Assembly (NCBI GenBank): GCA_043813075.1
Contig: JBDRLL010000003.1
Coordinates: 64,001-128,000 of the forward strand
From: Candidatus Altiarchaeota archaeon
Lineage (GTDB): Archaea; Altiarchaeota; Altiarchaeia; IMC4; SCGC-AAA252-I15
Reading direction: 5' to 3'
Length of the DNA stretch: 64,000 nt
Shown: positions 53,958 through 62,652 of the stretch, one piece after another
Layout of the letters: every line of letters begins with the position of its first letter
Position numbering within the stretch: position 1 is the stretch's first letter
Notes under the pieces: model-generated
Seen by the model: only the letters and a program-made list of their open reading frames with translations
Databases searched by the model: none
What the model was told of the DNA's origin: nothing
Translations under genes and position numbers: made by a program

Positions 53958-54026
53958 ATATTATTAAAATACAGCATAATATTAACCGGCGGTATGATGA
54001 TGCGAACAACCTCTGAATTGTGATGA

Positions 54027-54218
54027 GTGATGGGCGACCTGACCGCCATTCTGGGTGTGTCCAATGTTAAGGACGGTGTTCTTGGGGTTATGGCCGCTAA
54101 ATTCAGGGATAACCTGCAGGAGTACGGGCCATATGACGGGATTACCTTAGCAGAGGGCGGGTCAAACCTTGACGAGCTGGTTACGAGACAATTAATTAGT
54201 TTCGATTATACAAGTTAA
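54027..54218 (+). CDS. Short hypothetical ORF (possible remnant)
   Basis: 63-aa ORF filling the intergenic space; no motif. Confidence 0.3.
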   Translation: MMGDLTAILGVSNVKDGVLGVMAAKFRDNLQEYGPYDGITLAEGGSNLDELVTRQLISFDYTS

Positions 54219-56369: not shown

Positions 56370-57596
56370 ATGGCAGGAGTGGAGATATCTGTTGTAGTGT
56401 GCACGTACAAGCGTCCGGACTATCTCAGAAAAACGATTAAAAGCCTGGTGACACAGAGTTTAGACGGGGGAAGATACGAGATAATAGTCGTCGACAACGA
56501 GATAAGCGGTGAAACGCGCGGTGTGGTAGACGAATTCGGTGGATACAACGTCAGATACATTCCCGAACCTAGGCTCGGCGCATCATACGCAAGGAACACC
56601 GGATGGATGAATGCTAGCGGGCGTTACATAGCATTCACTGACGACGACGCGATAGCGTATCCTGACTGGCTTGAGAGCATAATAAAAGCATTCGATAGCG
56701 TGAAGCCTAGTCCTGGAGTTGTGGGCGGTAAGGTGGAGCCCATATGGCAGTCCAAACCCCCTGAATGGCTTAGAGGATGGCTGCTGGACCTGCTCACAAT
56801 AGTCGACCATTATGACTCCCCGACGGTTCTGAACGACACCGGAAAATGGCTGGTTGCCATGAACATCGCCTACCCCAGGGAAATCCTAGAGAAATACGGG
56901 GGATGGGACGTTAAGACAGGTAGGAGAGGCGGCAGACTACTGTCCTGCGAGGAAGAGTGGTTGAACGAGAAAATCGCTGGGGACGGCCATCAGATATACT
57001 ACAGTCCAGACATCATCATGAAGCACCACATAATGCCGGAACGTATGACAGTCAAATGGCTTGCCAGAAGGATGTTTTGGAATGGCGTATCGCACGCGGT
57101 AATACAACTGATTAAGGGCGGACGACGGAAAGGCATAAGCTCTCTGATTAAAGATGTCGACTCGCACACACTCAACTACATGGAAAAGGAATACGAAAGC
57201 AAAGTACTGTTAGAGCTTAAGAGAGACTACGACAAGACTTGGGGGGGGAACAATATTGTTAAGGAAGGCATTGATGACTTGATAGTAAGATACAACGACT
57301 ACGGCGGCAGGAAGTCACTAATCAGCGAACTGCGTGAATTAAACCGGAAAAACGAGTGCAGGGGGATAAGAGACCTGCTGGAGAGATACGACGTTAGCAT
57401 GATACCGCTGAAAACAAGGGTGACATACATTTATGCAGTATACAAGGGGCTATGTGAAGACTATGTGGGGCCGGGCGGCCTAAAGAAAAGTGAAAAAGAG
57501 CGCTACTATTCTCTTCTATACGATAGGATAACGTTTATCCTCTACTTATCCGAGAATATCGGATACACGTTGGGTATGACTGGTTTGGTCAATTGA
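56370..57596 (+). CDS. GT2 family glycosyltransferase with C-terminal extension
   Basis: ISVVVCTY, VVDN, GASYARN and FTDDD motifs. Confidence 0.9.
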   Translation: MAGVEISVVVCTYKRPDYLRKTIKSLVTQSLDGGRYEIIVVDNEISGETRGVVDEFGGYNVRYIPEPRLGASYARNTGWMNASGRYIAFTDDDAIAYPDWLESIIKAFDSVKPSPGVVGGKVEPIWQSKPPEWLRGWLLDLLTIVDHYDSPTVLNDTGKWLVAMNIAYPREILEKYGGWDVKTGRRGGRLLSCEEEWLNEKIAGDGHQIYYSPDIIMKHHIMPERMTVKWLARRMFWNGVSHAVIQLIKGGRRKGISSLIKDVDSHTLNYMEKEYESKVLLELKRDYDKTWGGNNIVKEGIDDLIVRYNDYGGRKSLISELRELNRKNECRGIRDLLERYDVSMIPLKTRVTYIYAVYKGLCEDYVGPGGLKKSEKERYYSLLYDRITFILYLSENIGYTLGMTGLVN

Positions 57597-57647
57597 AAAG
57601 CAGCTTCAGGACTCAACTAATAAAACACCAAACCAATGATATAAAAT

Positions 57648-59570
57648 ATGAACAAGGACTCTGGACTGGCGAAATACCTCAGGGATGAGGAGAAGATAGC
57701 CAAGATGCTTTTCCTACTAGCTGCCGCGAGCGCTGTCCTAGAGTACTTTGGCGTGGAGCAGAGACTGCCTTTCCATATAGCACTGCTGACTATCGCATTC
57801 ACGCCAATCCTGTTGAAGAGGGAGCAGATGAACAACATGAGGTTTGCCGTACCCTATCTAGCTGCAGCAGCATTGATTTTCACCATGCCCTTGTTCAAGA
57901 ACTTCAGTTACTGGGGGTATCATGACTGGGACTTCCACATGGCCATGAACGAGGTGGCGAGGAGGACCATAATAGAATACTGGCAGATCCCATTCTGGAA
58001 TCCTTTCGCTGGGGGAGGGAAGATATTCCTCGCGAACCCGAGCTCAGGATTCCTAAGCCCGCTCTACGTCATCGTGCTGATATTCGGCACAGTCCACGGA
58101 ATGAAGCTGCAGATAATAGCGCACACCATATTAGGTTTGATAGGGTTCATGCTGCTGTCGAAAAACCTGGGTTTGAAGGGGCATGCTGCATACCTACCAG
58201 GATTCGTGTACATGTTCAACAGCTTCTACAGCCTTCACCTGACGGTAGGCCATTACGCGTGGATAGCCACCTGCTGGCTCCCCTACGTCTTCCTATACTA
58301 CAAGATGAGTTACGAGGAGTTGAGGTACACGCTGGTGGCGGGACTGTTCATCGCACTAATGTATCTTGAGGCTCACGGATACTTGTTCGCATACTCTCTT
58401 CTCGTCATAGGACTGCACGCGTTCTTCAAATTCGCAACAAACCTTCTGTCCCGGCAAACTTCCTTAAGGAGAAAGCTGATGCCGTTGATTATCATACCAC
58501 TGATAGTCAGTTCGACATTGCTTATTGGGTCTGTGAAGATAATACCCACACTATTGTACACTCAAGACTACCCACACAAATTCACGAGACAGCCAGGATT
58601 CCAGCTTTCAACCCTAGAGTACGCCCTCCTGAACACCAGCAGGATAAGCACTTCAATATACTGGCATAACAAAAGCGCGTACATGGGTGTCATACCCATA
58701 CTGCTCGCGTTGATGGGCGTGGTAGTCATGGGGAGGGAGTCGATACCTTTGATACTTGCATTGATCATAATACTGTGGGCGTCGTTCACGACCTACGCGC
58801 AGATAAACATTTGGGAGATGATAAACAAGCTGCCGTTATACCAACACCTTAGGTCGCCCACCAGGCTGATAATGCTGGTCGTGTTCATAATAGCCATCTT
58901 CGCAGGGCAGGGGGCTAAGAAGGTGGACAGGATAAGCGAGAAGCTTACGGCACTCCTCGTCACATACTGTATGATAACCTTCGTCATGTACAACAGTAAC
59001 GTGCTGTACAAGGCGTTCATAATAGAACCATACGCAGTCAAAAGAACAGGCACCGAATTCCAGCAGGGATACTTCAGCGACAAGAAGAGGGGTCAGAACA
59101 CCAACATATTCGCCCACATAAACGCTAACCAAGGCTACCTGAAGGACTACGACCCCGTGAAGAAGAGGAACTACGCCATAGACTTCAGGAACAAAAGCTA
59201 TGAGGGAGAAGCGTTCATGACATCCAACAACAAGGCAGAGCTCACATACTTCTCCCCCAACAAGTTCGTGGTAGAACCCGGTGACGACGGAGTAGTGGTC
59301 TTGAACCAGAACTACGTTGACGGGTGGAGTGCGAACGGGAAGGAAGCACTGAAGGTGGACGGGCTTGTGGGTGCTGAAGCAACCAAAGAAGAGGGAGAAG
59401 TCGCCTTCAAATACACTCCGCCAGGATTCTACCTCGGATTCATGCTGACCACAGGAACACTAGTGCTGACACTGCTCGCGCTGACGAACAACCTGCCAAA
59501 ACTAAAGCAGATGATAAAAGACACCCTCAAAGAGGCCCGGAAGGAGTCCGAACGCGAATACCTCAAGTAG
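57648..59570 (+). CDS. YfhO-like polytopic membrane protein (GT-C-like)
   Basis: PFWNPFAGGG...LANP, LRSPTR, LNQNYVDGW and FKYTP motifs; many TM helices. Confidence 0.78.
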   Translation: MNKDSGLAKYLRDEEKIAKMLFLLAAASAVLEYFGVEQRLPFHIALLTIAFTPILLKREQMNNMRFAVPYLAAAALIFTMPLFKNFSYWGYHDWDFHMAMNEVARRTIIEYWQIPFWNPFAGGGKIFLANPSSGFLSPLYVIVLIFGTVHGMKLQIIAHTILGLIGFMLLSKNLGLKGHAAYLPGFVYMFNSFYSLHLTVGHYAWIATCWLPYVFLYYKMSYEELRYTLVAGLFIALMYLEAHGYLFAYSLLVIGLHAFFKFATNLLSRQTSLRRKLMPLIIIPLIVSSTLLIGSVKIIPTLLYTQDYPHKFTRQPGFQLSTLEYALLNTSRISTSIYWHNKSAYMGVIPILLALMGVVVMGRESIPLILALIIILWASFTTYAQINIWEMINKLPLYQHLRSPTRLIMLVVFIIAIFAGQGAKKVDRISEKLTALLVTYCMITFVMYNSNVLYKAFIIEPYAVKRTGTEFQQGYFSDKKRGQNTNIFAHINANQGYLKDYDPVKKRNYAIDFRNKSYEGEAFMTSNNKAELTYFSPNKFVVEPGDDGVVVLNQNYVDGWSANGKEALKVDGLVGAEATKEEGEVAFKYTPPGFYLGFMLTTGTLVLTLLALTNNLPKLKQMIKDTLKEARKESEREYLK

Positions 59571-60507
59571 AGTTCTCAGGCGCATTCCCAGACAGGACAG
59601 TGTTGTCTATGTCCTTGAACATGGGGAAGCCGCGCTCGCTTATCGGGACATACATGACGCTGTTGTGCTTGTCCAGATTGGTAATCCAGTACCAGCTCAA
59701 GTACGCTGGAGTCAGACTCTGGCCGATTATGTCATTGGCCTTGGATATGCCCTCAGCCTCAATGCGCTTCCTCTCAGCCTCCTTCTGCTCCTTCTGTATA
59801 ACGAACTCCATCTTCTGAGCCTCCTGCTCAGCCTGCAGTTTAACCTCGATGGCACGCTCTATCTGCGGGGGCCGGACTATTGTCCTAACCAGCACCTGCT
59901 CCAAAACTATGTTCTTATCCTGGAACAGAGGCCTTAGGTTGTTGAATATCTTCTTGGCCATCTCAGGCCGCTTCTGGTGCATGTCCATCGCAAGGTATTC
60001 CCCGGCAACGTCGCGTATCGCCGTCCTGGCGACTGGGCGTATGATTATCTTCTCATAGTCTCTCCCGACAGTCTGATGAATCTGATTCGCCTTCTCAGGG
60101 ACTATGTGGTAGAGTATTGTCACGTCAAAGTCGACGTTCAAACCGTCCTTTGATATGGCGGTTATCCTGTCGTCGCCCTTGACACTACCCTCCCCGGAAA
60201 CGATGCTCATGGTATAGTCCTGGGTCTTTACGTTGTAGTTGGTGACCGTCACCCAGGGCGGCTTGAGATGCCACCCCTCATTGAACTCATCCTCCAGAAC
60301 GCCTCCAGACAGGTAGTTGAACCTCACACCACGCTCGCCGGCGCCGACACTCGCAATCAACAAGGGGCTGATGAAGATGAATGCTATGAAAAAAACGATT
60401 AGAAGCGTTATGATTGAGCCGGCCGGACTCCTGCCGCCGGACCTGCCTCTATGATGCCCGGACTCAACGCCAACCGGGATATCAATCTCCTCGCCGAATA
60501 GCCTCAT
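59563..60507 (-). CDS. Prohibitin/SPFH (band 7) protein
   Basis: GAGERGV, EGWHLKPPW, SKDGL and AIEVKLQAEQEAQKM...EAERKRIEAEG motifs. Confidence 0.92.
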   Translation of the reverse strand: MRLFGEEIDIPVGVESGHHRGRSGGRSPAGSIITLLIVFFIAFIFISPLLIASVGAGERGVRFNYLSGGVLEDEFNEGWHLKPPWVTVTNYNVKTQDYTMSIVSGEGSVKGDDRITAISKDGLNVDFDVTILYHIVPEKANQIHQTVGRDYEKIIIRPVARTAIRDVAGEYLAMDMHQKRPEMAKKIFNNLRPLFQDKNIVLEQVLVRTIVRPPQIERAIEVKLQAEQEAQKMEFVIQKEQKEAERKRIEAEGISKANDIIGQSLTPAYLSWYWITNLDKHNSVMYVPISERGFPMFKDIDNTVLSGNAPENST

Positions 60508-60992: not shown

Positions 60993-61031
60993 AAACGTTT
61001 TTCTTTCTTTCCCAAAGAAAGAAAAAGGTTT
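60993..61031 (-). terminator. AT-rich stem-loop downstream of the tRNA locus
   Basis: aaacgtttttctttcttt-ccc-aaagaaagaaaaaggttt: 18-bp stem with one mismatch. Confidence 0.5.
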
Positions 61032-61112
61032 GCCGCCGACGAGACATTCAGAAGCCTTAGGCTTCTGATGCGCCGGAATCGCTCTTGCGATTCCGAGCGT
61101 TTGAACTCGCGA
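61028..61112 (-). pseudogene. Second copy of the tRNA-Phe 3' end (T arm + acceptor strand) interrupted by a 55-nt BHB intron at 59/60
   Basis: 61028-61044 equals 61117-61133 and 61100-61112 equals 61134-61146; insert 61045-61099. Confidence 0.85.
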
Positions 61113-61119
61113 TGGTGTT

Positions 61120-61223
61120 TGCCGCCGACGAGATTTGAACTCGCGACACCCCGGTTTCGAAAAGCCTTTTGGACTAAGGGGCTCTCTTCAGCCGAGTGCT
61201 CTCCCAGACTGAGCTACAGCGGC
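61120..61223 (-). tRNA. tRNA-Phe(GAA) with a ~30-nt intron at canonical 37/38 (61156-61185); CCA not encoded
   Basis: GCCGCTG TA GCTC AGTCTGGGA GAGC A CTCGG CT GAA G [intron] A CCGGG GTGTC GCGAG TTCAAAT CTCGT CGGCGGC A folds to a cloverleaf. Confidence 0.95.
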
Positions 61224-61374: not shown

Positions 61375-62652
61375 ATGGCTGCCGTAGAATCTGAGAGGGA
61401 ACCTAGACTAACACCCAATCAAATACGCCTAGTTAGGGCCTCTCGTTTCTCGAGGGAGGATGAGAGGCGCTTGGACGAGCTTTTGAAAGGTCCTTTACCT
61501 GACGACCCCAACAGAGGCCTGATTGCTGATGGACTTAGGAGTGAGTATGGACTTCAGGGTGTTGATGATGGTGTTCTCGCGCCGTTGGTTCGGCTTAGGG
61601 TTATGAGGCAGGGTTTGAGGGGGAGGTTAGGGGTAAGCGCTCAGGATGAGGAGGGCTTGCGCGAGTTCATTCGGGTAGAGCCGGGGGAGATTGACAAGTA
61701 TGAGGATTTCGCTCAGAGCTTGAGGAACATGGTGAGAATCCAGGAGGGGATTGGAAGTCGCATAGGCGAGTGGTTGGACGGCAGGGTGGACGAGAGAGTT
61801 GAGAGCGCATGCAAGAGTGAGATTGAAGGCATCAAGTTTCTCACGTTCATAGAGAATCTTGGCGGTGTCGGGGAATACCATAAGGTGCCTGGGATAATAA
61901 CCGAGACTGTTCAGACTGGGAATAGGTTCCTAAGCGACATCATCGGATTCACTGGATACAATACCCTACTCGACACTGACCTGACGGAGAGGATTAAGAA
62001 GCGTTTTGAAGGCCAGCGGCAGGTCAACATCTTGGACTCCGGATGCGGCAAGGGAAGTGCCTTGGCTGAGTTGGTCCAGAATCTGGATAAGGAGTGGGGC
62101 GGCCACACGGTTTTGGATGAGGGTGGTGAGAAGATAGTCTTATTCCGGAACGGTAAGCGACTTAAACTAGTGGGTGTGAGCAGGCTGGAGTACAAGCCGC
62201 ACCAGGATTACATAAATTACGTTGTTAGTGACATAAACCAAGCGCCACTTAAAGGACCCTTTGACGAGATATGGGACGTGTACGGGCCATTAACATATAT
62301 TTTAGAGAAAAAAGAACTGTTGGAGAAGTACTACCGACTTCTAAGGAAGGATGGGGACGGTGGCGAGGCAGGAGCAGTGAGGATAGCGACTAATGAGATG
62401 ATAATACTGCCCCCCAACCTCAATAAACCATTGGAGGAGCTGAATAGTGATGATGTTGAAGCTGGTGGAAGAGAGCTCTCGAGGAGGGTGGACGGCTTTG
62501 AATTGAAAGTCATACGCAGACGGTCGTTGGCTATCGAATTGCGTAGGCTTCACGATCAGATTCAACTGCCACTTGGAAAAGGAGAACCAGTAGCGTATGG
62601 TGGGATATACGTCACAGGCGTTAGAGAGATATACAAGGTGGAGTCGGATTAG
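61375..62652 (+). CDS. Orphan N-terminal domain + class I SAM methyltransferase domain
   Basis: ILDSGCGKG, GPFDEIWDVYG and YYRLLRKDG motifs. Confidence 0.7.
   Translation: MAAVESEREPRLTPNQIRLVRASRFSREDERRLDELLKGPLPDDPNRGLIADGLRSEYGLQGVDDGVLAPLVRLRVMRQGLRGRLGVSAQDEEGLREFIRVEPGEIDKYEDFAQSLRNMVRIQEGIGSRIGEWLDGRVDERVESACKSEIEGIKFLTFIENLGGVGEYHKVPGIITETVQTGNRFLSDIIGFTGYNTLLDTDLTERIKKRFEGQRQVNILDSGCGKGSALAELVQNLDKEWGGHTVLDEGGEKIVLFRNGKRLKLVGVSRLEYKPHQDYINYVVSDINQAPLKGPFDEIWDVYGPLTYILEKKELLEKYYRLLRKDGDGGEAGAVRIATNEMIILPPNLNKPLEELNSDDVEAGGRELSRRVDGFELKVIRRRSLAIELRRLHDQIQLPLGKGEPVAYGGIYVTGVREIYKVESD

Follow-up and report, generated by a model that had tools for sequence, protein, structure and literature searches.

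A second, intron-bearing copy of the tRNA-Phe 3' end directly behind an archaeal tRNA-Phe gene probably records tRNA intron turnover

How introns arrive in archaeal tRNA genes and depart from them is still unsettled. In the one worked example, the tRNA-Thr(GGU) of Caldiarchaeum subterraneum, the accessible text of Sugahara et al. 2012 (PMC3293823) invokes recombination between two kinds of attachment site, with and without an intron, to account for a tRNA fragment that occurs together with an intron gain. This example relies on fragments that are kilobases apart. A single non-canonical intron distinguishes the gene from a fragment of this tRNA at its locus, from which the authors infer recent turnover; the fragment represents the 5' part and lies 1.8 kb off, a recombinase gene is situated in between and the intron, at position 24/25, resides in the working gene. 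According to the same text, after integration of the SSV and pNOB8 type the 3' part of a tRNA gene is present twice as an exact direct repeat (44 bp are quoted for SSV1), on one side of which the working gene is restored. The part available of Chan et al. 2011 (PMC3218864) reports partial tRNA fragments from archaeal genomes, which it attributes to integrations or rearrangements, and also describes split and permuted tRNA genes with a piece that has its junction at a bulge-helix-bulge (BHB) site. The available passages of PMC3218864 and PMC4033280 also credit Randau and Soll with the idea that introns located towards the 3' end of tRNA genes interfere with the integration of elements.

BHB motifs were classified here with the Marck-Grosjean rules as restated in the accessible text of bioRxiv 10.64898/2026.10.13.758758, under which the hBH class is ranked as canonical. 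The alpha4 and alpha2 splicing endonucleases are described as requiring the strict hBHBh' motif, whereas alpha-beta and three-unit enzymes take hBH (PMC3239211, as far as its accessible text goes).

The locus described here lies in a stretch of 64,000 nucleotides (64 kb), which was analysed as a whole and is referred to as the window. Rfam model RF00005 detected a tRNA-Phe(GAA) gene at 61120..61223 on the minus strand with 50.2 bits (E 9e-08), covering model positions 1-71 of 71, and together with reading of the sequence this interval runs from the acceptor 5' end to the discriminator base. It belongs to the only family that exceeded its Rfam threshold across the 64 kb. The anticodon GAA identifies the gene as tRNA-Phe, and CCA is not encoded. 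ARAGORN reported no tRNA gene in the 64 kb, presumably because an intron interrupts the anticodon loop; ARAGORN alone would therefore underestimate the number of tRNA genes of this genome. This canonical intron comprises 30 nt at position 37/38 (61156..61185, minus strand; boundaries and motif count). By the published motif rules it forms a relaxed hBHBh' structure with 3/4 central pairs, five pairs in h and five pairs in h'. The imperfect central helix suggests that the endonuclease of the organism already handles a non-ideal motif.

Downstream of the gene, a second copy of its 3' end follows in tandem. Read on the minus strand, the order is A1, B1, ACCA, A2, a 55-nt insert, B2 and a T-rich tract. 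Block A1 (61134..61146, 13 nt, repeat family D6) covers tRNA positions 47-59 within the working gene, and B1 (61117..61133, 17 nt, repeat family D2) covers positions 60-73 plus the three trailer bases AAC. After the ACCA spacer (61113..61116, 4 nt), which was read directly from the sequence and occurs in neither flank of the second copy, A2 (61100..61112) represents the 5' exon piece of the putative relic and provides one strand of the T stem as well as the TTCA strand of the central helix discussed below (repeat search and motif count). B2 (61028..61044), the 3' exon piece found by the repeat search, retains the native downstream context, as its T-rich trailer resembles that of the relatives. 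All four blocks lie on the minus strand, and both block pairs are 100% identical; the coordinates and description of the tandem duplicate given by an earlier reading of the sequence alone (the sequence-only reading) are thus correct. Once the insert is removed, the second copy equals the last 30 nt of the gene (positions 47-73 and three trailer bases) at 30/30 nt. The identity stops sharply on either side, which points to a recent event. The 17-mer of block B has two matches in the window at an expectation of 0.03. Ignoring the insert, the repeat period is 34 nt from start to start.

The two copies differ in what follows them. Copy 2 leads into a T-rich trailer, as seen after tRNA-Phe in the relatives, and copy 1 leads through ACCA into copy 2. 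Directly after copy 2, the repeat search revealed the T-rich tract together with an AT-rich 18-nt inverted repeat (94% complementary, 3-nt loop) at 60993..61031 on the minus strand, which begins within the last bases of the second copy and spans the T tract. Tract and repeat together are likely to serve as the transcription stop of the whole unit, of which the inverted repeat may form a part. Since AAC separates the discriminator base from ACCA, the latter is not a CCA tail on a tRNA end. An origin of the duplication from cDNA of a reverse-transcribed mature tRNA was therefore rejected, as AAC intervenes and the first copy belongs to a gene that retains its 37/38 intron. For the same two reasons, ACCA does not support the recombination with a spliced, CCA-tailed copy that the sequence-only reading proposed.

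We consider it about an even chance (probability roughly 0.5) that the locus consists of one working tRNA-Phe(GAA) gene and a non-functional, intron-bearing relic of a 3' end that was left behind by recombination in the 3' part of the gene. This reading is supported by the finding that copy 1 completes the full-length match to the Rfam tRNA model. Compared to C. subterraneum tRNA-Thr(GGU), the arrangement is similar in that a tRNA gene shares its locus with a partial copy of itself and a single non-canonical intron sets the two apart. Unlike the situation described in the accessible part of PMC3293823, the fragment here is a 3' part only 4 nt off, neither an element nor a recombinase is present, and the intron lies at 59/60 in the fragment. 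The SSV- and pNOB8-type integrations share with our locus the exact direct repeat of a tRNA 3' part and the complete gene on one side. In contrast to what the same text describes for them, the repeat measures 30 bp and flanks only 4 nt, neither element DNA nor an intact or split integrase gene lies between the repeats, and one copy is split by 55 nt. With split and permuted genes, as far as they are described in the available part of PMC3218864, the putative relic has in common that a piece ends at a BHB site. Unlike these, it lacks its own promoter and leader, it duplicates a part that already exists and trans-splicing is not needed. The piece follows a complete gene on the same strand after 4 nt, which leaves no room for a promoter, and it is thus not a separately transcribed one.

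The 55-nt insert (61045..61099, minus strand) was characterised by motif count, folding and copy search. It interrupts the second copy at 59/60, a bond of the T-loop that corresponds to 37/38 of the anticodon loop and that we take to be a documented position of archaeal tRNA introns. Its excision restores the intact 3' end exactly, as A2 plus B2 equals A1 plus B1 over all 30 nt, and the placement of both junctions by the sequence-only reading is confirmed. The central helix pairs TTCA (T-loop positions 54-57, before the 5' bulge) with TGAA of the insert (before the 3' bulge) in 4/4 Watson-Crick pairs, and the five-pair T stem serves as the outer exon helix h, for which at least two contiguous pairs are required. 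The unpaired stretches are AA^C and TG^T with each junction after the second base, in agreement with the initial description. TG^T, placed between T stem and central helix, forms a genuine 3-nt bulge, and AA^C comprises three unpaired bases situated in a three-way junction. The inner helix h' of the insert amounts to a single pair, whereas strict hBHBh' motifs need at least two contiguous pairs; the insert is therefore a candidate intron of the hBH class and its 5' cut is placed in the three-way junction. Of the textbook, perfect BHB that had been claimed, the hBH geometry is real, but the single h' pair, the location of the 5' cut and a splice conformer above the minimum-energy fold (see below) do not fit this label. 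No gene for a splicing endonuclease was found in the 64-kb window by the family scan of its open reading frames.

Archaeal non-canonical BHB introns of Thermoproteales, Asgard archaea and others, as presented in the accessible texts of PMC3239211, PMC4033280 and bioRxiv 10.64898/2026.10.13.758758, likewise show a 4-bp central helix, 3-nt unpaired stretches at the cut sites (the 5' one in a three-way junction in our case), an outer helix, a position outside 37/38 and exact restoration of the tRNA. In contrast to them, the fragment that carries the insert cannot form a tRNA without the upstream gene, and h' is absent.

How easily such a motif arises by chance was estimated at the same site, where 376 of 20,000 shuffled inserts and 367 of 18,270 genomic 55-mers reached the hBH class (about 2% each). 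The real insert reaches this class at only one of the 65 positions of the spliced tRNA, which is the observed one. These numbers bear on the possibility that the 55 nt are not a spliced intron and display the motif by coincidence; a dead tRNA fragment would then have received structured DNA of another kind, for example filler from repair or a small hairpin element. The frequency of about 2% among random 55-mers is compatible with this, as are the missing h' and a minimum-energy fold that consists of two hairpins and not of the splice motif. On the other hand, the site mirrors 37/38 and is the single one of 65 that fits, the central helix is fully Watson-Crick paired, and the sequence at the insert ends shows neither terminal inverted repeats nor a target duplication, with no further copy in the window. 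Altogether, we regard a chance motif as improbable.

The copy search covered the 64-kb window at up to three mismatches and, by short-word BLAST, the 119 tRNA-Phe loci listed in the comparison set described below, and in neither did the insert turn up a second time. Among the 190 BLAST matches in these listed loci, eight lay outside the tRNA; they were 14-23 nt long, at chance level, and none was located in the insert. The notion of a small mobile hairpin intron that targets T-loops consequently gained no support. The insert and the gene's own 37/38 intron have a 7-nt word in common at nearly equal distance from the 3' cut. Homology of the two introns was rejected, as the shared word is not significant and 338 and 439 of 5000 shuffles equalled the alignment score. 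A C/D-box guide RNA within the insert was also considered and dismissed, as no C box could be read and Rfam at E up to 1 returned nothing there.

Folding of the 85-nt stretch with the insert gave -38.9 kcal/mol (z -5.18), and none of 200 shuffles folded as well, so that the two strong alternative hairpins pointed out by the sequence-only reading are real. It is these hairpins, not the splice motif, that dominate the minimum-energy fold. The BHB conformer reached -31.7 kcal/mol versus -38.9 kcal/mol for the minimum at 37 °C (7.2 above), -17.5 versus -22.6 kcal/mol at 60 °C (5.1 above) and -5.8 versus -9.0 kcal/mol at 80 °C (3.2 above).

With the acceptor 5' strand paired to copy 1 or to copy 2, folding energies at 37 °C were close (-79.5 versus -81.4 kcal/mol). 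The slightly more stable fold with copy 2, and the adjacency of copy 2 to the T-tract trailer, would suit a single gene with two introns, in which the mature tRNA is made via copy 2 by removal of an 89-nt intron (B1, ACCA, A2 and the insert) from site 59/60, and in which it is the first 3' end that has intruded. As inferred from its sequence, the first A block could form the same central helix and T stem in the same hBH geometry. Yet the first copy emerges first in transcription and gives a complete tRNA, and since both routes lead to the same product, no selection would maintain the route via copy 2. We therefore assign a very low probability to a two-intron gene.

A working gene with a relic behind it would be expressed as follows. 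A single transcript would read through both copies to the T tract, and the first acceptor 3' strand, emerging first, would complete the cloverleaf. Cleavage by RNase Z would then take place behind the first discriminator base, and the relic would be lost with the 3' trailer. If the 5' strand paired with copy 2 instead, A1 would form the same central helix and T stem and the cut would remove 89 nt; as the mature tRNA would be identical, the relic may be harmless. Regarding its origin, the gene might recently have recombined in its 3' part, so that an intron-less 3' end came to lie before an intron-bearing one. The latter would be either the gene's own former end or an arrival from a donor copy. 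In the first case, an intron-less donor end would have displaced the intron-bearing resident, and in the second an intron-bearing donor end would have stayed beside the intron-less resident.

To see how the locus looks elsewhere, we used a comparison set of at least 119 tRNA-Phe loci, which resulted from a scan of genome contigs with a D-arm and anticodon-arm pattern containing one N. At this N, 117 of the 119 listed loci carry C, and the N admitted the tRNA-Phe of Nitrososphaeria. Neither the genome from which the window derives nor the closest relatives of this genome are part of the set, of which five listed loci are related to the window. In tblastn searches with eight window proteins, the gene for ribosomal protein L35Ae was present at these five loci (L023, L045, L049, L061 and L099), and the genes for the gamma and delta subunits of pyruvate oxidoreductase were detected at L023, L049 and L061 with up to 84% identity in L023. 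The reverse search matched the AIR-synthase-like gene at L049 (60%) and L023 (54%) and revealed a weak bPH_2-like match just downstream of the L049 tRNA (23%, E 2e-6). The records of the five relatives are labelled Altiarchaeota, Altiarchaeales, Euryarchaeota and uncultured archaeon, and Gammaproteobacteria in the case of L099. The lineage of the window, with relatives labelled Altiarchaeota or Euryarchaeota, is not among the intron-rich groups named in the accessible texts of PMC3239211, PMC4033280 and bioRxiv 10.64898/2026.10.13.758758.

The acceptor 5' strand is common to the window and all five L35Ae-linked relatives. Each of the five has one uninterrupted tRNA-Phe 3' end, and a T-loop insert or a duplicate 3' end occurs in none of them. 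A 37/38 intron is found in L045 only (18 nt). For the 118 other archaeal tRNA-Phe loci listed with a locatable 3' end, the available sequence, which in 39 loci extends to just some 300 nt on each side, contained no further copy of the last 16 nt, which indicates that the tandem arrangement is unusual. The T-loop insert is not ancestral at the depth of the five L35Ae-linked relatives, as judged from their sequences. If it was ever part of the working gene, it was gained recently, and a formerly intron-bearing working gene would therefore need a gain followed by a loss.

No such gain and loss in the working gene is needed if a local duplication came first. In this scenario, slippage or end-joining would have duplicated the last 30 nt of an intron-less gene end with ACCA as filler, and the BHB intron would have entered the distal copy afterwards. 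The distal copy would be transcribed but unselected, so that the insert could persist free of cost. The period of 34 nt from start to start, insert ignored, is in line with this, no mobile element has to appear and vanish, and the 7-nt word shared with the 37/38 intron near the 3' cut would be in keeping with it, but this word is not significant. Furthermore, the ACCA filler stays without explanation, and neither the window nor the 119 loci listed contain the insert a second time. A splice-exact insertion into a functionless copy would moreover need targeting, for instance by reverse splicing and reverse transcription, of which no sign was seen here. We consider a duplication that preceded the intron the main alternative, though an unlikely one.

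The reading of a working gene and a recombination-derived relic draws on the 30-nt block of sharply delimited identity, which resembles an attachment-site repeat. With only 4 nt between the copies, and since site-specific excision leaves one copy, an additional and nearly exact deletion must be assumed. The surroundings were searched for traces of mobile elements. The genes around the tRNA-Phe gene are ordinary ones and encode a bPH_2 membrane protein, an SPFH protein, a glycosyltransferase, a class I methyltransferase-like protein, L35Ae and PorC/PorD. A family scan assigned none of the 65 non-overlapping open reading frames of the 64 kb to an integrase, recombinase or transposase, Pfam found no integrase among the nine open reading frames flanking the tRNA, and PHROGs and PADLOC returned nothing element-like in six open reading frames, five of them flanking the tRNA. 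A third copy of the 27-nt or the 17-nt repeat does not exist in the 64 kb, for which reason a distant second element border was rejected. The GC content is flat in the window. The bacterial-type promoter and terminator scan, which does not cover archaeal signals, and Tandem Repeats Finder showed nothing relevant between 60800 and 61500.

When the 231-nt region was compared to phage and plasmid collections at E up to 1, 63 phage and five plasmid records matched. A virus or plasmid donor was rejected, as the best 20 of the 63 phage matches and all five plasmid matches cover at most 20% of the query and are confined to the tRNA part. Integration followed by deletion of the element, as suggested by the sequence-only reading, hence receives no direct support from the spacing of the copies, the gene content, the repeat search or the virus and plasmid matches, which do not exceed generic tRNA similarity.

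The intron-bearing duplicate next to a working end that lacks this intron is probably a record of intron turnover. The description as a snapshot of intron gain or loss is borne out insofar as these two ends lie next to each other, the hBH motif forms at one of 65 positions and none of the 118 loci listed has a duplicate; the mechanisms offered along with it are weaker. That the locus is itself an intermediate of tRNA intron turnover in a lineage which is not known for interrupted tRNA genes, with a 59/60 BHB intron just lost by replacement of the 3' end or just inserted into a transcribed spare copy, is a tentative proposal that we would call unlikely at present.

All of this presupposes a correct assembly. 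The records of the relatives are metagenome-assembled genomes, and the window may stem from one, too, so that two strain variants with and without the T-loop intron could have been fused. However, the ACCA junction belongs to neither putative allele and a chimera would not be expected to create it, which makes such a fusion unlikely, and the repeats of 13 and 17 nt are presumably below usual assembly word sizes. An assembly artefact is the explanation to which we give the least credence.

The kinds of features combined here are known: non-canonical BHB introns, tRNA fragments near tRNA genes (PMC3218864) and intron change linked to integration (PMC3293823) are all described in the accessible texts. 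Measured against these texts, new details are the immediate tandem, an intron on the spare and not on the working copy and a lineage outside the intron-rich groups named. A literature search by titles and abstracts found no report of a tandem intron-bearing tRNA 3' duplicate and, among the papers listed, none on tRNA introns of Altiarchaeota. Intron-free and intron-bearing 3' ends side by side and otherwise identical would constitute a compact and directly testable intermediate. If this is true, intron gain or loss would proceed via short duplications of tRNA 3' ends and not by clean insertion or deletion. The locus, which is a single one, is also relevant to the proposal that the integration of elements is hindered by introns located towards the 3' end of tRNA genes.

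Besides the tRNA itself, the gene order of the region deserves mention. A 425-aa open reading frame at 61375-62652 on the plus strand, resembling class I SAM methyltransferases, lies between the tRNA-Phe and L35Ae genes. The basis for this assignment is weak, as the match to Pfam Methyltransf_25 is below the cut-off and the structure neighbours in the Atlas, which are methyltransferases, have TM values of 0.3-0.4. At L023, L049, L061 and L099, the L35Ae gene is located about 60-200 nt upstream of the tRNA with no methyltransferase-like gene in between. On the other side, genes for a family 2 glycosyltransferase, a 640-aa protein without family match and an SPFH/Band 7 protein occupy 56370-60507 between the AIR-synthase-like and bPH_2 genes, the counterparts of which are adjacent in L049. 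The extra genes on either side of the tRNA compared to the relatives indicate a change in gene content on both sides.

Two of the comparison loci showed peculiarities of their own. L099 (contig CAWEEC010000110.1) comes from a bin labelled Gammaproteobacteria, although its tRNA-Phe is of archaeal type and its L35Ae gene shows 69% identity to that of the window; the contig is probably mis-binned. In L001, which belongs to Micrarchaeota, a block of about 85 nt within 300 nt after tRNA-Phe recurs about 190 nt later.

Two further regions of the window may be of interest. At 53990-54045 on the plus strand lies a candidate C/D-box guide RNA with 37.1 bits to Rfam family sR2 (gathering score 42; E 1.5e-4), which also matches two further C/D-box families, all below threshold. 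Between 31750 and 41164, a run of radical SAM genes was observed, three of which are predicted to be B12-binding; all assignments are below the curated cut-offs, and the run includes two partial matches to the models of tetraether lipid synthase (Tes) and TrsS.
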